A stretch of DNA of 64,000 bases from the NCBI RefSeq assembly GCF_022846255.1, contig NZ_AP025682.1. One strand, 5' to 3'. Source of the stretch: Escherichia coli. Its GTDB lineage: Bacteria > Pseudomonadota > Gammaproteobacteria > Enterobacterales > Enterobacteriaceae. Position 1 is the stretch's first letter; each line of letters opens with the position of its first letter. Positions 26,404 through 43,259 of this stretch are shown one piece after another. The position numbers and the translations under genes are program-made. The notes under the pieces are model-generated. The model did not search any database. It was given only the letters and a program-made list of their open reading frames with translations, and was not told where the DNA came from.

Positions 26404-26642
26404 GAGGATATCCTTCAGCATAAATGTAATAGACAAAATGCAGTGTACCGGATACCGCCAAAAGCGAGAAGTACGGGCAGGTGCTATGACCAGGACTTTT
26501 TGACCTGAAGTGCGGATAAAAACAGCAACAATGTGAGCTTTGTTGTAATTATATTGTAAACACATTGCTAAATATTTTCACATCCACTACAACCATATCA
26601 TCACAAGTGGTCAGACCTCCTACAAGTAAGGGGCTTTTCGTT

Positions 26643-29087
26643 ATGATGATTTTGAGTATTCTCGCTACGGTTGTCCTGCTCGGCGCATTGTTCTATCACC
26701 GCGTGAGCTTATTTATCAGCAGTCTGATTTTGCTCGCCTGGACAGCCGTCCTCGGCGTTGCTGGTCTGTGGTCGGCGTGGGTACTAGTGCCTCTGGCCAT
26801 TATCCTCGTGCCATTTAACTTTGCGCCTATGCGTAAGTCGATGATTTCCGCACCGGTATTTCGCGGTTTCCGTAAGGTGATGCCGCCGATGTCGCGCACT
26901 GAGAAAGAAGCGATTGATGCGGGCACCACCTGGTGGGAGGGCGACTTGTTCCAGGGCAAGCCGGACTGGAAAAAGCTGCATAACTATCCGCAGCCGCGCC
27001 TGACCGCTGAAGAACAAGCGTTTCTCGACGGCCCGGTAGAAGAAGCCTGCCGGATGGCGAATGATTTCCAGATTACTCATGAGCTGGCGGACCTGCCGCC
27101 GGAGTTGTGGGCGTACCTTAAAGAGCATCGTTTCTTCGCGATGATCATCAAAAAAGAGTACGGTGGGCTGGAGTTCTCGGCTTATGCCCAATCTCGTGTG
27201 CTGCAAAAACTCTCCGGCGTGAGCGGGATCCTGGCAATTACCGTCGGCGTGCCGAACTCATTAGGCCCGGGCGAGCTGCTGCAACATTACGGCACTGACG
27301 AGCAGAAAAATCACTATCTGCCGCGTCTGGCGCGTGGTCAGGAGATCCCTTGCTTTGCACTGACCAGCCCCGAAGCGGGTTCCGATGCGGGCGCGATTCC
27401 GGATACCGGGATTGTCTGCATGGGCGAATGGCAGGGCCAGCAGGTGCTGGGGATGCGTCTGACCTGGAACAAACGCTACATTACGCTGGCACCGATTGCG
27501 ACCGTGCTTGGTCTGGCGTTTAAACTCTCCGACCCGGAGAAATTACTCGGCGGTGCAGAAGATTTAGGTATTACCTGTGCGCTGATCCCGACCACCACGC
27601 CGGGCGTGGAAATTGGTCGTCGCCACTTCCCGCTGAACGTACCGTTCCAGAACGGACCGACGCGCGGTAAAGATGTGTTCGTGCCGATCGATTACATCAT
27701 CGGCGGGCCGAAAATGGCCGGGCAAGGCTGGCGGATGCTGGTGGAGTGCCTCTCGGTAGGCCGCGGCATCACCCTGCCTTCCAACTCAACCGGCGGCGTG
27801 AAATCGGTAGCGCTGGCAACGGGTGCGTATGCGCACATTCGCCGTCAGTTCAAAATTTCTATTGGTAAGATGGAAGGGATTGAAGAGCCGCTGGCGCGTA
27901 TTGCCGGTAATGCCTATGTAATGGATGCTGCGGCATCGCTGATTACCTACGGCATTATGCTCGGTGAAAAACCCGCCGTGCTGTCGGCTATCGTTAAGTA
28001 TCACTGTACCCACCGCGGGCAGCAGTCGATTATTGATGCGATGGATATCACTGGTGGCAAAGGCATTATGCTCGGGCAGAGCAACTTCCTGGCCCGTGCT
28101 TACCAGGGGGCACCGATTGCCATCACCGTTGAAGGGGCAAATATTCTGACCCGTAGCATGATGATCTTCGGTCAGGGGGCGATTCGTTGCCATCCGTACG
28201 TGCTGGAAGAGATGGAAGCGGCGAAGAACAATGACGTTAACGCGTTCGATAAACTGCTGTTCAAACATATCGGTCACGTCGGTAGCAACAAAGTTCGCAG
28301 CTTCTGGCTGGGCCTGACGCGCGGTTTAACCAGCAGCACGCCAACCGGCGACGCCACTAAACGCTACTATCAGCATCTGAACCGCCTGAGTGCCAACCTC
28401 GCCCTGCTTTCTGATGTCTCGATGGCGGTGCTGGGCGGCAGCCTGAAACGTCGTGAGCGCATCTCGGCCCGTCTGGGGGATATTTTAAGCCAGCTTTACC
28501 TCGCCTCTGCCGTTCTGAAGCGTTATGACGACGAAGGCCGTAATGAAGCCGATCTGCCGCTGGTGCACTGGGGCGTACAGGATGCGCTGTATCAGGCAGA
28601 ACAGGCGATGGACGATTTACTGCAAAACTTCCCGAACCGTGTGGTTGCCGGGCTGCTGAATGTGGTGATCTTCCCGACCGGACGTCATTACCTGGCACCG
28701 TCTGACAAGCTGGATCATAAAGTGGCGAAGATTTTACAAGTACCGAACGCCACTCGTTCACGTATTGGTCGCGGTCAGTACCTGACGCCGAGCGAGCATA
28801 ACCCGGTTGGTTTACTGGAAGAGGCGCTGGTGGATGTGATTGCCGCCGACCCGATTCATCAGCGGATCTGTAAAGAGTTGGGTAAAAACCTGCCGTTTAC
28901 CCGTCTGGATGAACTGGCGCACAACGCGCTGGCGAAGGGGCTGATTGATAAAGATGAAGCCGCTATTCTGGTGAAAGCTGAAGAAAGCCGTCTGCGTAGT
29001 ATTAACGTTGATGACTTTGATCCAGAAGAGCTGGCGACGAAGCCGGTAAAGTTGCCGGAGAAAGTGCGGAAAGTTGAAGCCGCGTAA
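26643..29087 (+). CDS. fadE: Acyl-CoA dehydrogenase FadE
   Basis: 814 aa from [11 protein letters not shown]; N-terminal membrane segment plus acyl-CoA dehydrogenase domains. Confidence 0.9.
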
Positions 29088-29095
29088 TTGAATAA

Positions 29096-29120
29096 CGGAG
29101 CCTTTCGGCTCCGTTTTTTT
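29096..29120 (+). terminator. Rho-independent terminator between convergent fadE and ivy
   Basis: cggagcc-tttc-ggctccg stem-loop followed by TTTTTTT. Confidence 0.7.
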
Positions 29121-29129
29121 ATCGGCTAA

Positions 29130-29603
29130 TTATTTAAAATTAAAGCCATCCGGATGGTTTTCCAGGCTGCCGGTCAACGCCGCGAACAGCACCGTTTTAC
29201 CATCAATAGAAAGCGCATCGTTCACATTCAACCAGGTGAGTTTCTCTTGCGACGTTTTCTCATCAATGGTCGAGAACAGCCCCGTCATCTGATTAGATTT
29301 CTCGGACCACATCACAGCGATACGTTGCGAGCCACAGTCATGCGGTTTGCACGCGCTCATCACCTGATACGTCTCATCTCCCAACGTTACGGTTTGTGCA
29401 GGGGTATAAGTACCGCCTTTCATCACCCAGGCCGGCAGCTTATGCCCTTGCACCATCTGATTAAACGCCGCTTTGGTGGTTTCGCCCTTTGCAAGACTGC
29501 TAATGGTTAAATCATCCTGCGCCATTGCACTGGTGGCGATGACCAGAGCGGCGACTGTCGTTATTGCCTTAAACATCATTCCTCCCGGGCTTATCCTGCC
29601 CAT
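29130..29603 (-). CDS. ivy: Inhibitor of vertebrate lysozyme Ivy
   Basis: 157-aa periplasmic protein with the CKPHDCG motif typical of Ivy. Confidence 0.85.
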   Translation of the reverse strand: MGRISPGGMMFKAITTVAALVIATSAMAQDDLTISSLAKGETTKAAFNQMVQGHKLPAWVMKGGTYTPAQTVTLGDETYQVMSACKPHDCGSQRIAVMWSEKSNQMTGLFSTIDEKTSQEKLTWLNVNDALSIDGKTVLFAALTGSLENHPDGFNFK

Positions 29604-29756
29604 GTGATTAACTCCCTAAAGCCTGGCGATAACACGATAATTTGCAAATCAGATATTTCCAATATCAGCATTTGTTATCAATTTATTCTGCGCTAAGGCA
29701 ACTGCCTGATAAGGTGTTAGAGTTATAAAACCCTTCGCATAAAGGAGTTGTACACC

Positions 29757-30527
29757 GTGCCTGGTTTGAAGATTACGCTTTTGCAGCAACCACTGGTGTG
29801 GATGGATGGTCCTGCCAACCTGCGCCATTTTGATCGTCAACTGGAAGGTATTACCGGGCGCGATGTGATCGTTCTACCGGAGATGTTTACCAGCGGCTTT
29901 GCCATGGAAGCGGCAGCTTCGTCGCTAGCACAAGATGACGTAGTGAACTGGATGACAGTCAAAGCGCAGCAGTGCAATGCGCTGATTGCAGGCAGTGTTG
30001 CATTACAAACGGAGTCTGGTTCGGTTAACCGCTTTTTGCTGGTTGAGCCGGGCGGCACGGTACATTTTTATGATAAGCGTCATCTGTTCCGCATGGCAGA
30101 TGAGCATCTACATTATAAAGCGGGCAATGCGCGAGTGATTGTGGAATGGCGCGGCTGGCGTATTTTGCCGCTGGTGTGCTACGACTTACGTTTTCCGGTG
30201 TGGTCGCGCAATCTCAACGATTATGACCTCGCCCTGTACGTCGCCAACTGGCCTGCTCCGCGCTCTCTACACTGGCAGGCATTGCTGACAGCCCGCGCGA
30301 TTGAGAATCAGGCGTATGTGGCGGGATGCAATCGCGTCGGCAGCGATGGCAACGGCTGCCATTATCGTGGTGACAGCCGGGTGATTAATCCGCAAGGCGA
30401 GATTATCGCTACTGCCGACGCGCATCAGGCAACGCGCATTGATGCGGAGCTGTCGATGATGGCATTGCGGGAATATAGAGAAAAGTTTCCGGCATGGCGG
30501 GATGCGGATGAGTTTAGGTTGTGGTGA
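29757..30527 (+). CDS. yafV: Nitrilase-family omega-amidase YafV
   Basis: CN-hydrolase family (LPEMF, CYDLRFP motifs); GTG start at 29757. Confidence 0.85.
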   Translation: MPGLKITLLQQPLVWMDGPANLRHFDRQLEGITGRDVIVLPEMFTSGFAMEAAASSLAQDDVVNWMTVKAQQCNALIAGSVALQTESGSVNRFLLVEPGGTVHFYDKRHLFRMADEHLHYKAGNARVIVEWRGWRILPLVCYDLRFPVWSRNLNDYDLALYVANWPAPRSLHWQALLTARAIENQAYVAGCNRVGSDGNGCHYRGDSRVINPQGEIIATADAHQATRIDAELSMMALREYREKFPAWRDADEFRLW

Positions 30528-30552: not shown

Positions 30553-31770
30553 AGAGTCAGGGTAAGACTACGAAAGCCCGCTCCCAGCAAGGACTGACGC
30601 CAGGTAGTTTCTGTCCATGGCTGCTTTTCGCATCTTACGTCTTAACCCTGCCTTGAATACATTATCATTCGTTAAAATATTAATAGCGATGTGCCGTATC
30701 CCTGAAAATAATTCTGCTGCATTTCCTCTTCTTATTTTGCAGTCGTCTTCATTCATTACCACGTCCAGACGCCAGTGCAGCTTATTCTCCACGTGCCAGT
30801 GGTTTCGGATTGCTGTGGCGAACTTCTCTGCGGTTAAATCAGCAGAACTGATATAATATCTGACCGTCATTTCTGGCTCTTTCTTTTGTTCTGCTATTAT
30901 TGACCGAAAGGAGACTGCCACGCATAATTTCTTCAGACCTTTCCATTCAAACATGAAATCAATAAGTTCATCAGGGACATCGCAAACAATGTGAAGACGG
31001 ATTTCTTCTCTGCCGTGACTTTTTTCACTAATTGCGTAACTGTCATGCTCTGGATTATTTAATTCTTTCAGTGGGAATTTTTCCTCAAAGGCTTTATTAA
31101 GCCGCCCCTGATTTCCTTTTACAGCGAATAAATAATCACCGCCCTGTTTTTGTATCTTCTCTGCGATATCTTTCTGGCAACCCATCGCATCAGTTGTGAT
31201 AATTTTTCCTTTAATATCCAACATGTTAAGAAGTTCATGGATAGCTGTGATCTCATTGGATTTCTCATCCGTCCTGATCTGTCCGATGACCAGACTGTGC
31301 ATTGTTGAGAACGCACTAATGACATGAATCGCTCCCCTGCGGCGACTCTTGTCATAAGAATGCCGGAGCGTTTTTCCATCAATTGCAATAACGTCTTTAT
31401 CATCTGAAGAATGGCAGTCACGCATCCAGTTAATAAAGCACTCGTGAAATTTTGCAGGACTGATACAGGATACAACTCTGGCAATGGTATCGTGAACAGG
31501 AATACCATTTTCAAAATCACCATATTGCTTCAAAAAATCGAGATGTGTTTCCCCAAAATCCTCTATATCTTCCCAGCCTTCTGCACCAGAAATAACGGCA
31601 CAAATAGTCAACAGTAGAATACCCGATAATTTATGTTCCACTTTCCAGGCTTGTCTGTAATCGGGGATAATAGAAATATGTTCCATCAATTTTTTAAGTT
31701 CCATTTTGTTCTACTTAATTATGTAAGGAGTATTTGATCATGTATACGCAATAAAAAACAGCTTCAGGTA
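30553..31770 (-). mobile_element. H-repeat (H-rpt) element, ISAs1-family, copy A (intact)
   Basis: 1214-bp unit directly repeated at 31767-32985; encodes a 378-aa DDE transposase-like H-repeat-associated protein. Confidence 0.8.
30568..31704 (-). CDS. H-repeat-associated protein / ISAs1-family transposase
   Basis: 378 aa, [27 protein letters not shown]..., resembles the YhhI/YdcC H-rpt protein family. Confidence 0.85.
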
Positions 31771-32985
31771 ACAGGGCAAGATTACGAAAGCCCGCTCCCC
31801 GCAAGGACTGACGCCAGATAGTTTCTGTCCATGGCTGCTTTTCGCATCTTACGTCTTAACCCTGCCTTGAATACCTTATCATTCGTCAAAATATTAATAG
31901 CGATGTGCCGTATCCCTGAAAATAATTCTGCTGCATTTCCTCTTCTTATTTTGCAGTCGTCTTCATTCATTACCACGTCCAGACGCCAGTGCAGCTTATT
32001 CTCCACGTGCCAGTGGTTTCGGATTGCTGTGGCGAACTTCTCTGCGGTTAAATCAGCAGAACTGATATAATATCTGACCGTCATTTCTGGCTATTTCTTT
32101 TGTTCTGCTATTATGGACCGAAAGGAGACTGCCACGCATAATTTCTTCAGTCCTTTCCATTCAAACGTGAAATCAATAAGTTCATCAGGGACATCGCAAA
32201 CAATATGAAGACGGATTTCTTCTCTGCCGTGACTTTTTTCACTAATTGCGTAACTGTCATGCTCTGGATTATTCAATTCTTTCAGCGGAAATTTTTCCTC
32301 GAAGGCTTTATTTAGCCGCCCCTGGTTTCCTTTTACAGCGAATAAATAATCACCTCCCTGTTTTTGTATCTTCTCTGCAATATCTTTCTGGCAACCCATC
32401 GCATCAGTTGTGATGATTTTTCCTTTAATATCCAGCATGTTAAGAAGTTCAGGGATAGCTGTAATTTCATTGGATTTCTCATCCGTCCTGATCTGTCCGA
32501 TGACCAGACTGTGCATTGTTGAGAACGCACTAATGACATGAATCGCTCCCCTGCGGCGACTCTTGTCATAAGAATGTCGGAGCGTTTTTCCATCAATTGC
32601 AATAACGTCTTTATCATCTGAAGAATGGCAGTCACGCATCCAGTTAATAAAGCACTCGTGAAATTTTGCAGGACTGATACAGGATACAACTCTGGCAATG
32701 GTATCGTGAACAGGAATACCATTTTCAAAATCACCATATTGCTTCAAAAAATCGAGATGTGTTTCCCCAAAATCCTCTATATCTTCCCAGCCTTCTGCAC
32801 CAGAAATAACGGCACAAATAGTCAACAGTAGAATATCCGATAATTTATGTTCCACTTTCCAGGCTTGTCTGTAATCGGGGATAATAGAAATATGTTCCAT
32901 CAATTTTTTAAGTACCATTTTGTTCTCCTTAATTATGTAAGGAGTATTTGATCATGTATAAGCAATAAAAAACAGCTTCAGGTAA
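31767..32985 (-). mobile_element. H-repeat element copy B (tandem direct repeat of copy A)
   Basis: Near-identical to copy A with a 1214-bp offset, flanking sequence included. Confidence 0.8.
31782..32918 (-). pseudogene. H-repeat-associated transposase gene disrupted by a nonsense mutation
   Basis: GAG to TAG change at 32091-32093 relative to copy A splits the ORF into 275-aa and 100-aa pieces. Confidence 0.8.
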
Positions 32986-33147
32986 TGAGGAATATCTCAA
33001 TTTTTAAACATAAAATGCGAATTATTTAGTACAAAAAAGCAGCGTTACGTGATCTTTCCCTGACTGTGTAGGAAAACAGGTTTCCAAGCCCTTCCGAACC
33101 ATTCATGCCTGCAAACAAAAGCAGCTGCGGCGGCACCGCACTACCAC

Positions 33148-33468
33148 TTACTGTGACGTTATGCGCCCCGGACCACCGGCAGCAAGCGACGCCGCCGCAT
33201 CCTGAACTGCACCAGCCATATCCGAGATCCCTGCTGCTGCAGCGGCAGCCTGCGCAGCAGCTACTGCTGCTTTAACCAGACCTGACGGTTCCGGCAACGC
33301 ACCAAACAGGTCCGCCGCTGCCTGTTCTGCCATCTCCTCGGCGGCACCAGATACATCGGTTACGGCTGAACCTGTGCTCATACCGCCACTTTCGCCAGCT
33401 ATTGGTGGTGTGGTGATGACGGGTCCACCGTTTCCAGCTGGTTTGTTACCCGTAGATACAAAACTCAT
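33148..33468 (-). CDS. Hypothetical Ala/Gly-rich small protein
   Basis: 106-aa ORF, low-complexity composition; coding status uncertain. Confidence 0.3.
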
Positions 33469-33492: not shown

Positions 33493-33864
33493 TTAGAATT
33501 TAGCGCCCGGCTGCCAGAAAAAATAAGAAATAACCCGCCACTGTCCATCTTTATAATGAAAAAAACATGTCAGATTTAAATCCCCCCGCAAATGCCAAAA
33601 CATTTCTTTGATGGGAATATTTCTGAATTCAGTATTCGTTGAGCGATAGGTGTTTTCAATTTCTATATAATACTCACCGACAAATTTATAACGAGGCTTT
33701 ATAAATTCATACGCTGGCTGACCATAGTTATTTAATAGAACATTCTCTTCAACTCCATTATACACACCACTCGCATTCAGATAAGCATGCCCAGGAATAT
33801 CAGACATGCTATTTTTCGCCCCACCCACTATCAAAAAAATTATCACAGCGTATATTAGTTTCAT
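33493..33864 (-). CDS. Small secreted protein, candidate immunity protein for the upstream zincin-like protein
   Basis: N-terminal signal peptide (MKLIYAVIIFLIVGGA); 4-nt overlap with the upstream gene. Confidence 0.5.
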   Translation of the reverse strand: MKLIYAVIIFLIVGGAKNSMSDIPGHAYLNASGVYNGVEENVLLNNYGQPAYEFIKPRYKFVGEYYIEIENTYRSTNTEFRNIPIKEMFWHLRGDLNLTCFFHYKDGQWRVISYFFWQPGAKF

Positions 33865-34601
33865 TTTTTTACGCTTTTCACAAAAAAATTAGAACCCGGA
33901 ACCATTCTATTTAACCGCTCAATGACATTTCTCATATAACGAGAGCGCAGTTCCATACCAATATTCATTAACGCACTGGCGTCCCCGGAGAATGGTGTAG
34001 TTGCTTTATCTGCATCATCACTATAGTATTCATCAGCAAGATATCCAATAATATGCCCAAGCTCGTGAGACAGCCCTATTTGCTCATGGCAAACTTTTGA
34101 TGAGCCAAGACATTTAGCTGCTGCAACTATATCTTTAGAGTCAAGTTCAACGTATCGACTATTCCAGACAATGGAACTCTGTCGAAAACTATTTGGATCA
34201 TCATTATCAATTTTAAACACCACCACATCCCAATACCCATGACGATCAGTCTGAATTATTTCTATTGAGAAAGATAAATCCTTACCATTAAACTTACTGG
34301 CAAACTCAGACTTCCCAGAAACGGATAAAAAAATCTTATTATTCCATGTTTGATTAATGACAAAAATAACTTTCCCATGAAAGGCATTTTTCTCCAAATC
34401 TGTCCAGTCAGTTTTTGCATCCCATCTTTTTATCCAATTATATTTCCATCTCAGCAACAATGAGATTGCACCATTTTCACGGTCAATTCTTAAATCTCCC
34501 CAGGCATCATTGTCCCTGATATATCGTTTATCCAGCATTAAGTCGTCATAAGCATCGTATGCCTGCTGAATAGCTTCATCATGAGAGTCACCCATGTTCA
34601 C
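33861..34601 (-). CDS. Putative zinc metallopeptidase (HExxH zincin), candidate T6SS effector
   Basis: HELGHIIGYLADEY motif; located in the T6SS effector array and paired with a signal-peptide protein. Confidence 0.5.
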   Translation of the reverse strand: MNMGDSHDEAIQQAYDAYDDLMLDKRYIRDNDAWGDLRIDRENGAISLLLRWKYNWIKRWDAKTDWTDLEKNAFHGKVIFVINQTWNNKIFLSVSGKSEFASKFNGKDLSFSIEIIQTDRHGYWDVVVFKIDNDDPNSFRQSSIVWNSRYVELDSKDIVAAAKCLGSSKVCHEQIGLSHELGHIIGYLADEYYSDDADKATTPFSGDASALMNIGMELRSRYMRNVIERLNRMVPGSNFFVKSVKK

Positions 34602-34924: not shown

Positions 34925-35398
34925 CTACTCATCCGTACAACCCAGCCCCCGGCGCTGAACCACTTCACTGGCAAACGTAGCTCCGGTTTTTTTCATTATT
35001 CCTTTTTGTATTTTTTGCAGCGCGGGAAATGAGATTCTCCTGCATGAATCCTCTTCCCATATATCACCAGTTACAGGACTAACTGAAAATAGTCCCCACA
35101 CATCTGTCGCTCCGGCGGAAGGAGAATCATAACCTACCCCAAAACTAAAATACCCAGGATGATACAGGTTACCTTTTTTATCTTTCAGAGAACCGTCAAG
35201 AAAAAACCCAGACAATTCCACATTATATTTTTCATTTTTTAGTGAAAAAACCAATAATGCCTGCGCCTGTATTTCAGTAAGACCTGACTGGTTAACAGTC
35301 GTTAGATCAAACCGCGGCACATTCCTGATAAGAATTTCAGCACAACAATTCACGGACACGACCATGAAAAGCAATACTGATATTAATTTACAGGACAT
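34925..35398 (-). CDS. Secreted protein, candidate immunity protein for the GH73-like effector
   Basis: Signal peptide (MSCKLISVLLFMVVSVNC); overlaps the upstream effector-like gene. Confidence 0.5.
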   Translation of the reverse strand: MSCKLISVLLFMVVSVNCCAEILIRNVPRFDLTTVNQSGLTEIQAQALLVFSLKNEKYNVELSGFFLDGSLKDKKGNLYHPGYFSFGVGYDSPSAGATDVWGLFSVSPVTGDIWEEDSCRRISFPALQKIQKGIMKKTGATFASEVVQRRGLGCTDE

Positions 35399-35853
35399 GT
35401 TATTCTCCGCTTAACCATATTAATCACCCACACTAACTCACTAGCATAACCGGTATGGCCGCCATTACTGTTTTTACCTGAATTAAAACCAGAATCAATC
35501 AATGCCTGCGCAAATTGCTCCGGAGATTTTTTATTTCTGACCGCATTACCAAATCGGATTGCAAAGGACTTTCCGCTAGTTGAAAAAAAGGTATAAGTGG
35601 CAACCCACACTTGATTACTCCCCAGCGGGTGAACCTGTCCTGACTGTAAAGGTGCCGGACCATGCATGGAAAAGTAGTTATTGTATTCTGTCGCGATTCT
35701 ACCCTGCCCGTAAAAGGACTCCTTTGCAGCAAGCCCCAGGATATTTTCCACAGGCACATCAAGTTGCTTAGCGATTAATTCACATTCTTTCAGATATTGC
35801 TGTACAAACCTGACTGCACCAGTGTTATTACAGGCTTTATCATAAGACCCCAT
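35383..35853 (-). CDS. Glucosaminidase (GH73/FlgJ-like) domain protein, candidate T6SS peptidoglycan glycoside hydrolase effector
   Basis: LGLAAKESFYGQGRIATEYNNYFSMHG resembles the FlgJ/GH73 catalytic region; no signal peptide; small (156 aa). Confidence 0.55.
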   Translation of the reverse strand: MGSYDKACNNTGAVRFVQQYLKECELIAKQLDVPVENILGLAAKESFYGQGRIATEYNNYFSMHGPAPLQSGQVHPLGSNQVWVATYTFFSTSGKSFAIRFGNAVRNKKSPEQFAQALIDSGFNSGKNSNGGHTGYASELVWVINMVKRRITCPVN

Positions 35854-36836: not shown

Positions 36837-37313
36837 TTAATTCAGTTCCCAGAACCAGATTTCCTTGCAGCTAAAATAGCAATGTGAATGACATATAGCA
36901 CCTGTGGTAGAAGGCTCAATAAGATCTATATGACCGCCACCGTAACCCGTAATTTTCCAGAAAAAGACCACTCCTCTTTTATTACTGGTGTCTGTTTTAA
37001 ATTTTTCTGAGTCACACCAGATAACTGGTCTTCCAAAAACATCAGCTCGGGAAAGCTGATCTGCCAGTAATTTCGCACCGGTTTCTATTTTCTTCCCTTT
37101 CCAGTCACCACTTTTGATCGTCAGTCGCCCGTTAAAGCTGACGCCTGATTTAATCAGCGCCAGACTCATACGTGTGGCACAGGTATTTACATAACCAGCA
37201 TTTTGCTGTTGCAGTGCTTCATAGTTATAACCCACTTCACTGTACAAAACATCACCATCAATCTGAACTGATGAGTAATGGTTTTTTTTAAGTGTGAAAA
37301 ATGAAGGTTTCAT
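36837..37313 (-). CDS. Tae4-like type VI amidase effector (papain-like Cys/His peptidoglycan amidase)
   Basis: AGYVNTCATRMSLAL (Cys) and GGGHIDLIEP (His) resemble the Tae4 catalytic motifs as I recall them; 158 aa, no signal peptide. Confidence 0.55.
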   Translation of the reverse strand: MKPSFFTLKKNHYSSVQIDGDVLYSEVGYNYEALQQQNAGYVNTCATRMSLALIKSGVSFNGRLTIKSGDWKGKKIETGAKLLADQLSRADVFGRPVIWCDSEKFKTDTSNKRGVVFFWKITGYGGGHIDLIEPSTTGAICHSHCYFSCKEIWFWELN

Positions 37314-38005
37314 TTATTATTTCCTTTATCACAGGAGTGTTTACTTAGTGCCTCAATAATAATATTTGCAGCCCGTTCATTCAGTTTATCTGACGTTTTT
37401 TTTCTGAAATACCAGTAAATAATCTCATCCAGTGTAACTGTTTTAATCGTTTTATAATCGCACCATGTTTTTCTTTCCGTGGCATCTTCTATACCCAAAA
37501 GATAGATTTTCGCATTAAGCCTATCCTGCCTGTTATCTGACTGCCAGAAGCGGAAAAAATCATCTCCGTTCAGATCGAACGCGCCAGAGGTCAGGTGTGA
37601 AACAGATGAATGCCGGGGAGATTTTTTTTCCGGTGATGCCATATCCGGGCAGGGAAACAGCCTGACCATCGCTTGTTCAATCAGAGTTGAAGCTCGCATA
37701 TTCATATCGTTAACCGACTGCTGATTAAGATATGTCAGTACCGATGAATAAAGTTCTATTTCATTAATCTTATTATATCCACACCAGGTTTTACTTTCTG
37801 TCGCATCACTCACACCAAGGACATACATCAGAACATTTTCTTTTTCCTGTGACGTTCCACGAGCATAAAATGACAAAAATTCCTGCGCACTGAGATTAAT
37901 ATAATCGGGGTCAATAGTTCCTGTGTTTTTTCTGATATCAGCAAAAACATTTCCTGACATGGCATATAACAAAAAAATAATAAAAAAACGCGTATATTGT
38001 TGCAT
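37310..38005 (-). CDS. Secreted tandem-repeat protein, candidate immunity protein (two ~100-aa repeats each with paired Cys)
   Basis: Signal peptide; internal duplication (VLGVSDATESKTWCGYNKI... / LLGIEDATERKTWCDYKTI...). Confidence 0.5.
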   Translation of the reverse strand: MQQYTRFFIIFLLYAMSGNVFADIRKNTGTIDPDYINLSAQEFLSFYARGTSQEKENVLMYVLGVSDATESKTWCGYNKINEIELYSSVLTYLNQQSVNDMNMRASTLIEQAMVRLFPCPDMASPEKKSPRHSSVSHLTSGAFDLNGDDFFRFWQSDNRQDRLNAKIYLLGIEDATERKTWCDYKTIKTVTLDEIIYWYFRKKTSDKLNERAANIIIEALSKHSCDKGNNK

Positions 38006-42445: not shown

Positions 42446-42901
42446 TCAAAATTCTCTGGATAGAATAATATAGCCATTGAATCTTACGGAACACTCATTT
42501 TCATTAATAAGGCCGGATGCAATAAAAACATCTTTCCCTCTGTCATTGTTAATATAGGTATATTTTGCCACAATAGACTTGGCATGATTTTCATAGTAGC
42601 TATCAAAATACGATTTTTCATCTAACATTGCCTTCTTATTTCTGGCTTTGTCCTTCTCATAATCAATCTTAGCCAGAGACTCTGCATAAAACTTAGACAC
42701 AGGAGAAACATCAAGAACTTCTACCCTTGTTTTATCTCTTAAAATAGTAGAAGAATTTATATTCAAATCACTTTTCATTGCATCAAATAACGACAACTCT
42801 ATTGAGGCTCCAACCGTAGCGCAACCATCATTTTGTGCATATGAAATTGCAGGTATGCCAGCTAACAGGCAGATTATTACCTTGAACATATTAGTCCTCA
42901 A
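42446..42901 (-). CDS. Secreted protein, candidate immunity protein for the L,D-transpeptidase-like effector
   Basis: Signal peptide (MFKVIICLLAGIPAISYA); overlaps the upstream effector gene. Confidence 0.5.
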   Translation of the reverse strand: MRTNMFKVIICLLAGIPAISYAQNDGCATVGASIELSLFDAMKSDLNINSSTILRDKTRVEVLDVSPVSKFYAESLAKIDYEKDKARNKKAMLDEKSYFDSYYENHAKSIVAKYTYINNDRGKDVFIASGLINENECSVRFNGYIILSREF

Positions 42902-43259
42902 CCACTAATATTTTATCAGTACTGGCAGCAATAACCTTGCGATAAGGTAAATCCAGAATTATACAGCCATCAGAGGCTTCTCCTGGATGGGCTGAACTCT
43001 CTCCGTGTATCATGAAACCGTCACGCCCGCACATTTGATTTTCGGGGTAAGGCGTGAGCCTCATCGTCCATGCTCTTGTTCTGGCATGAAAAAATGCAAG
43101 TCCAATTGTATATGTACCTCTTGGCAATGGTCCCTTATCTCTTACACACTCATTAACAGAGTCATCTTTAAAACCCGGTCTGCCAGAATATCTGGCATTG
43201 AACTGATAGCTACCATTTAAATAAAATGAACGTGCATTAATTTTGTATACCCAAGGCAT
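42891..43259 (-). CDS. YkuD/L,D-transpeptidase-fold protein, Tlde1-like candidate T6SS effector
   Basis: FMIHGESSAHPGEASDGCIIL matches the YkuD catalytic H...SxGC motif; between tssL and tssM. Confidence 0.6.
   Translation of the reverse strand: MPWVYKINARSFYLNGSYQFNARYSGRPGFKDDSVNECVRDKGPLPRGTYTIGLAFFHARTRAWTMRLTPYPENQMCGRDGFMIHGESSAHPGEASDGCIILDLPYRKVIAASTDKILVVED

Follow-up and report, generated by a model that had tools for sequence, protein, structure and literature searches.

Insertion sequences of the ISEc1 type, the H-repeats (H-rpt) of Escherichia coli, belong to the ISAs1 family, whose members are ~1.2–1.3 kb in length, end in short terminal repeats, and duplicate 8–10 bp of target DNA. 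Loci homologous to them are named 'ISAs1-like element ISEc1 family transposase' in E. coli annotations, and the element described here is 96–98.7% identical over 1291 bp to such loci in thousands of genomes. K-12 examples include yhhI in RhsB and ydcC in RhsE. In the RhsC locus of K-12, complete and partial H-rpts (ybfQ, ybfL, ybfD) lie in the same orientation with no spacer between them, downstream of an intact rhsC, and comprise, in order along the array, element positions up to 1271, 1–1291, and 911–1291; they are known as H-rptC1–C3, names attributed to Zhao et al. (1993, J Bacteriol). A further K-12 remnant, yafF, also called 'H-rpt min.5', retains positions 1 to ~291 only; the aspV island has there undergone a deletion of the whole type VI secretion (T6SS) cluster, and yafF marks its yafV-side edge. 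Transposition of an H-rpt, according to the literature, has never been observed experimentally (PMC3032704). Rearrangement mediated by H-repeats, on a replicative-transposition model, has been proposed for the O-antigen group D2 of Salmonella, through adjacent deletion by the IS or recombination between IS copies: the rearrangement junction lies exactly at an H-repeat end, neighbouring genes were lost or replaced, two gene clusters were joined, and an H-repeat remnant was left behind (PMC3715488).

The window that we analysed, 64,000 nucleotides of an E. coli-type chromosome, contains a pair of such elements where the aspV-to-yafV T6SS island borders yafV. They differ from ISEc1/H-rpt in no fundamental way. 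Copy B is 1291 bp long, the inverted repeats terminate in CAGGG, copy A has a single 378-aa DDE open reading frame (ORF), and identity to other copies is 97–99%. The differences are matters of detail: B carries an amber codon of its own, 77 bp and one inverted repeat are missing from A, and no target-site duplication brackets either copy. Like the K-12 RhsC array, the pair joins a complete H-rpt to a partial one, but the truncation points differ, and the neighbouring rhs gene, intact in K-12, has been deleted. Like yafF, copy A occupies the ancestral insertion site, with the same terminal alleles, and marks the yafV-side edge of an island deletion; unlike yafF, it retains 1214 bp, is accompanied by a second copy, and has most of the T6SS genes still beside it. 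And as in Salmonella D2, a junction coincides exactly with the end of an H-repeat; here, though, a full copy remains and the change is a simple loss of 10 kb. Tandem complete and partial H-rpts have long been known, and the pair is one more private instance of them, an ordinary IS scar rather than a new element. It consists of two non-sister ISEc1 copies, arranged head-to-tail, that were probably brought together by insertion of ISEc1 followed by one or two deletions ending exactly at an IS terminus.

Locus and flanks

To the left of the pair, the fadE–ivy–yafV segment (26565–30527) has matches in all complete E. coli genomes, with identities of up to 98.8%, and yafV itself (29748–30527, + strand), an ORF bearing that name in its E. 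coli matches and specifying 2-oxoglutaramate amidase, forms the immediate flank. Strain VCSW7 is collinear with the window from the Flag-2 flagellar genes through yafV to the T6SS cluster (TagF, tssM … tssA) and on toward aspV–dnaQ. At the yafV|IS junction, the window has the same sequence as K-12 (the yafF remnant), 042 and 2012C-4502.

Farther left, positions ~1–23,100 are collinear with the Flag-2 (lateral flagellar) cluster of VCSW7, and include fliE, a sigma-54 activator, fliM/N, fliPQR and flhBA; yafL–dpaA–yafJ–lpcA come next. At the Flag-2 position, K-12 has only the lfhA and lafU pseudogenes left.

Boundaries of the two copies

The original prediction was of two near-identical units of 1214 bp, and alignment bears this out. 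By repeat search, MAFFT and direct count, 30558–31771 (copy A) and 31772–32985 are collinear over 1214 bp, with 29 mismatches (18 transitions and 11 transversions) and no gaps, or 97.6% identity, a similarity far above chance. The first unit had been placed 5 bp too far to the left, at 30553; the alignment starts at 30558.

The repeat unit is not the whole element, however. ISEc1/H-rpt is 1291 bp long, and the second copy, B, extends 77 bp past 32985, to 33062. At other E. coli loci, full-length copies align with B throughout positions 1–1291, and in relatives that lack the IS, homology to the window begins at 33063. Because of these three observations, the structure is that of one truncated copy, A, shortened at its upstream end, and one full-length copy, B, rather than of two equal units. 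For annotation, then, the IS unit is 1291 bp, not 1214 bp.

Copy A (30558–31771, − strand) comprises ISEc1/H-rpt positions 1–1214, numbered along the + strand, and is missing 77 bp and the inverted repeat at the end upstream of the transposase gene. The inverted repeat on the transposase-downstream side survives (30558–30572, CAGGGTAAGACTACG) and agrees with the other inverted repeat of B at 12 of 15 positions. Copy B (31772–33062, − strand) has both of its 15-nt terminal repeats. The first, CAGGGCAAGATTACG (31772–31786), stands directly against position 1214 of A with zero spacer; the second (33048–33062, reverse complement CAGGGAAAGATCACG) borders a truncated vgrG gene, and the two agree at 13 of 15 positions. 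In length and in terminal repeats B is thus a regular ISAs1-family element, while A has one inverted repeat.

Transposase genes

That these are H-repeats of the ISAs1 family, as originally proposed, is borne out by Pfam, by NCBIfam, and by the E. coli loci annotated as ISEc1. The products of both copies match Pfam DDE_Tnp_1_assoc and DDE_Tnp_1, and both score well above the cut-off of 70 bits for the NCBIfam ISAs1 equivalog NF033564 (413.5 bits for A, 307 bits for the B fragment). The gene in copy A (30568–31704, − strand) is intact, as had been supposed: an ORF of 378 aa with Pfam and NCBIfam ISAs1 matches. Its product has one substitution, D28G, that is private with respect to the other sampled copies (alignment column 1065).

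The gene in copy B is broken by a single change, GAG to TAG, at 32091–32093 (− strand), and this too accords with the prediction. The altered base is 32093; the corresponding codon in A is GAG at 30877–30879, and alignment with A reveals no frameshift or other disruption of the B frame. The N-terminal part, 275 codons (32091–32918, − strand), stops at the amber codon, leaving a product from which the C-terminal third of the DDE domain is missing, and with it the conserved HVENKLHW segment (residue 304). The remainder, codons 277–378 (31782–32090, − strand), is still in frame. All nine other sampled copies have GAG here, as A does, and TAG is private to B (alignment column 322); internal stops in the ISEc1 copies of other strains occur at different codons, 15 and 302. 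Exact-protein look-ups with the A transposase, and with the 275-aa fragment of B in search of other carriers of the amber codon, found neither on record. A promoter scan upstream of both ATGs gave a weak 9/12 match, no better than shuffled sequence.

Relationship of A to B

The pair was originally described as a tandem direct duplication, that is, as local copying of one unit. In-situ duplication of a resident H-rpt by unequal crossing-over or slippage, followed by divergence and the gain of one stop codon, would account for units that share an orientation, abut exactly, and repeat, ungapped, with a period of 1214 bp. The affinities of the two copies point elsewhere. A differs from the yafV-side copy of 2012C-4502 (L001:8188–9477) at 8 positions and from B at 29, and so the copy of another strain is far closer to A than is its own neighbour. 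K-12, 042 and 2012C-4502 have the same yafV|IS junction as A, and their yafV-side remnants carry its terminal alleles, T6 and C11; A is therefore the ancestral resident copy, as found beside yafV across E. coli. B differs from every sampled copy at 26–51 positions, and its best identity among 5,426 E. coli genomes is 98.7%.

Within the ORF, A and B differ by 20 synonymous and 6 non-synonymous codons, and they therefore diverged as working transposase genes under purifying selection. B is a complete element from a different ISEc1 sub-lineage than A, and its transposase was lost recently, through one amber mutation. The junctions have a different history. Neither of two 70-mers, across A|B and across B|vgrG, has a match among the 5,426 complete E. 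coli genomes, and a 34-mer across A|B has 0 matches in the GTDB species representatives and JGI metagenomes. Because A|B is found in no other genome despite the 20:6 codon split, the junction is young and the divergence old, the reverse of what duplication in place, with later divergence, would produce.

Duplication is at odds with the ends of the copies, too. B is 77 bp longer than A, with a proper inverted repeat where the additional sequence ends, and between IS position 1214/1215 and the sequence to the left of position 1 there is no homology to drive unequal crossing-over. We regard in-situ duplication as improbable. With units of unequal length (1214 and 1291 bp), a young junction, and a closer relative of A in another strain, the description of the pair as a tandem duplication does not stand, and A and B are, on these comparisons, non-sister copies. 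Gene conversion could obscure sister relationships where a genome has several ISEc1 copies, and among the 5,426 E. coli genomes the median is 5 places per genome. Coverage counts from a query that contained both copies are inflated, as one subject copy aligns to both query copies, and these were not used for counting the copies adjacent to yafV.

Fused and fragmentary copies in other strains

Fusions of the same general form occur elsewhere. In strain 0-4, a truncated copy, positions 1–1100, is fused straight to the end of a full copy (1–1291). In 2012C-4502 there are two direct fusions to full copies, of positions 1–29 in one case and 1 to ~44 in the other. Altogether, ISEc1 fragments fused to full-copy termini retain 29, ~44, 1100 or 1271 bp; their loci, together with those of the 12-bp and 98-bp fragments described below, are L001 8159–8187 and 11860–11905, L005 6787–7886 and 9178–9189, L003 5543–5638, and L009 10303–12926. 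Their recurrence suggests that deletions associated with IS ends have taken place repeatedly in these arrays. Closely spaced copies are common in any event: same-orientation H-rpt pieces with spacers of 52–330 bp are present in 1,665 of 5,426 genomes, a count obtained with a 200-bp junction query and uninformative on exact abutment. The pair in the window adds an example of H-repeats that form tandem complete/partial arrays and mark the endpoints of deletions; its significance is mainly one of annotation.

Several smaller fragments were seen in passing. Strain 0-4 has a 12-bp end fragment after a full ISEc1 copy, and AR_0077 has a 98-bp ISEc1 fragment against a different vgrG breakpoint. In E. 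coli 042 (L004 9199–12379), one ISEc1 copy next to the yafV-side array is split at position 204/205 by a group II intron with an ltrA reverse transcriptase/maturase gene.

Junctions and target sites

Direct repeats were sought around A, around B, and around A+B together, and no target-site duplication was found for any of them. Simple ISEc1 insertions in other E. coli strains, at L001 10151–11441 and L005 9250–10540, are flanked by 10-bp duplications, TTGTTAAACC and TTATAAACCC. Because simple insertions have such duplications and A, B and A+B do not, both ends of B are taken to be secondary junctions; the missing duplication probably reflects later rearrangement, and not exclusion from the ISAs1 family, duplications being usual in that family and absent at this locus. 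Neither end of B is a simple insertion site: position 1214 of A is joined to the first, and codon ~135 of vgrG to the second. The vgrG target, ACTGTGTAGG, does not look like either of the duplications seen.

Between themselves, TTGTTAAACC and TTATAAACCC are similar, a resemblance that may reflect a preferred target (TTRTWAAACC) or recurrent insertion into one conserved sequence downstream of Rhs (n = 2). We considered whether a pseudo-end might have been used at A|B, for CAGGTAA, at positions 1208–1214 of A, resembles the CAGGGTAA terminus; the break falls after this sequence, however, not before it, and the idea was set aside.

Certain insertion sequences, among them IS21, IS30, IS911 and IS2, transpose through head-to-tail (IS)2 intermediates with a highly reactive junction, and the order and zero spacer of A and B invite comparison with an active dimer of this kind, its inverted repeats abutted and ready to react. 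In a dimer, two opposite inverted repeats meet, a few bp apart. Here the upstream inverted repeat of A is gone, along with 77 bp, and the inverted repeat of B meets internal A sequence. Dimer copies would be identical, moreover, whereas 29 sites distinguish A from B, and the transposase of B is broken. With A's inverted repeat missing from it, the junction sequence itself rules the dimer out, and we leave this reading next to no probability.

Repeats are typical sites of misassembly, and with ISEc1 present at a median of 5 places per genome, one copy might have been expanded in the assembly, or two distant copies misjoined; a frameshift in a homopolymer of the neighbouring vgrG remnant hints at possible read-level errors as well. 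A misjoin, though, is expected inside homologous sequence, whereas at this junction position 1214 of one copy meets position 1 of the other. The two copies, moreover, have 29 differences. The flanks are distinct and sensible, with the ancestral yafV junction on one side and a vgrG break exactly at the inverted repeat on the other, and comparable abutting arrangements are present in finished genomes, including K-12. An assembly artefact is therefore quite improbable.

The truncated vgrG and the missing rhs module

On its right, the pair ends in the vgrG remnant (33063–33468, − strand), approximately the first 135 codons of the gene, cut at 33062|33063 by the end of B. The remnant is also frameshifted. 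A C-run at 33166–33169 has 4 C where VCSW7 and AR_0077 have 5, a 1-bp deletion that may reflect either true decay of the gene or a sequencing error in the homopolymer. The deletion creates a stop, so that the remnant looks like a free-standing ORF of 106 aa (33148–33468); this ORF is a piece of vgrG and should not be annotated as a gene.

In VCSW7 and AR_0077, vgrG runs on past this point; between it and the yafV-side ISAs1 copy lie a DcrB/EagR-like gene and then an RHS core gene. Relative to VCSW7, the stretch absent from the window amounts to 9,955 bp. The VCSW7 counterpart of vgrG is itself annotated as a pseudogene. We found no Rhs motifs (YD repeats, or the PxxxxDPxGL core end) in the six frames of the 64-kb window, no match to the window by tblastn with two Rhs core proteins, and no homologue of Rhs or EagR/DcrB within it. 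Rhs elements are composites of an rhs core, tips and an H-rpt, and without an rhs core ORF the window does not contain one. The absence of rhs had been noted originally, and rearrangement or deletion proposed. That deduction holds up, because the end of B cuts vgrG, 9,955 bp are missing compared with VCSW7, and no rhs is present in the window. The accompanying premise, that H-rpts outside rhs loci are abnormal, goes too far: an H-rpt is a conserved landmark on the yafV side, and its K-12 remnant, yafF, has no rhs nearby.

What disappeared, by comparison with these relatives, is ~10 kb: the part of vgrG beyond the break, the gene for the DcrB/EagR-like chaperone, and the rhs toxin gene with its downstream genes. 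With three VgrG proteins as queries, tblastn detected in the window only the N-terminal remnant (residues 1 to ~135) and no full-length vgrG, and the T6SS cluster (~33,000–60,400) therefore lacks a spike gene of its own there. Having lost the vgrG–chaperone–rhs module at an IS boundary, the island encodes neither a spike nor an Rhs toxin of its own within the window.

How the pair may have arisen

Insertion followed by deletion, the reading that we prefer, would proceed in two steps. First, an ISEc1 copy would insert in the array; then, one or two deletions, each with one end precisely at an IS terminus, would remove what lay beside it. Two such histories fit the data. In one, ISEc1 would insert into vgrG, and a deletion from its downstream end would extend into A at position 1214. 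In the other, position 1214 of A would be where B inserted, and a deletion from the upstream end of B would extend into vgrG. The deletions might be the work of transposase, through intramolecular transposition of the kind that gives adjacent deletions, or of RecA, through homologous recombination between ISEc1 copies in the same orientation, and we consider these routes about equally likely. Because H-rpt transposition has not been witnessed (PMC3032704), the argument for a transposase-driven step comes from the junctions, which fall exactly at IS termini.

Past mobility of ISEc1 we infer from the target-site duplications and from the variability of the sites that it occupies. A bolder reading is that ISEc1/H-rpt, long held to be an immobile relic, is active, or was so until recently, and that its termini make adjacent deletions that repeatedly prune vgrG–rhs modules from the T6SS islands of E. 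coli. The observations are compatible with this, because the fusion of truncated to full copies recurs, in the window, in K-12 RhsC, in strain 0-4 and in 2012C-4502; we think it rather unlikely nonetheless. Were it true, A and B would make a natural trans-complementation pair, A with an intact transposase and one end missing, and B with both ends and a broken transposase. On the main reading as well, A could in principle provide B, which keeps both ends, with transposase in trans. The pair itself serves no cellular function; its consequence is that the island has lost its vgrG–rhs module.

Other genes of the island

Directly upstream of the vgrG remnant is a pair of overlapping ORFs (33493–34601, − strand), one of 246 aa and the other of 123 aa. 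The 246-aa ORF (33861–34601) has a HELGH (HExxH) motif, with sub-threshold matches only, to M64 and M57 zinc metallopeptidases (E-values 0.011 and 0.09), and no NCBIfam match; the 123-aa ORF (33493–33864) has no matches. In relatives, both are annotated as hypothetical proteins. Their position and layout suggest a candidate T6SS effector/immunity pair, as yet uncharacterised.

Several effector/immunity cassettes of the T6SS cluster lie beyond, all on the − strand: a Tgi2PP immunity protein and a glucosaminidase-domain effector (34925–35853), a Tae4 amidase with Rap1a/Tai immunity (36837–38005), and a Tlde1-domain L,D-transpeptidase-like effector (42891–43259). Two segments of the cluster, at 36.7–38.2 kb and 47.1–48.2 kb, are not collinear with VCSW7, which suggests that cassettes have been swapped.
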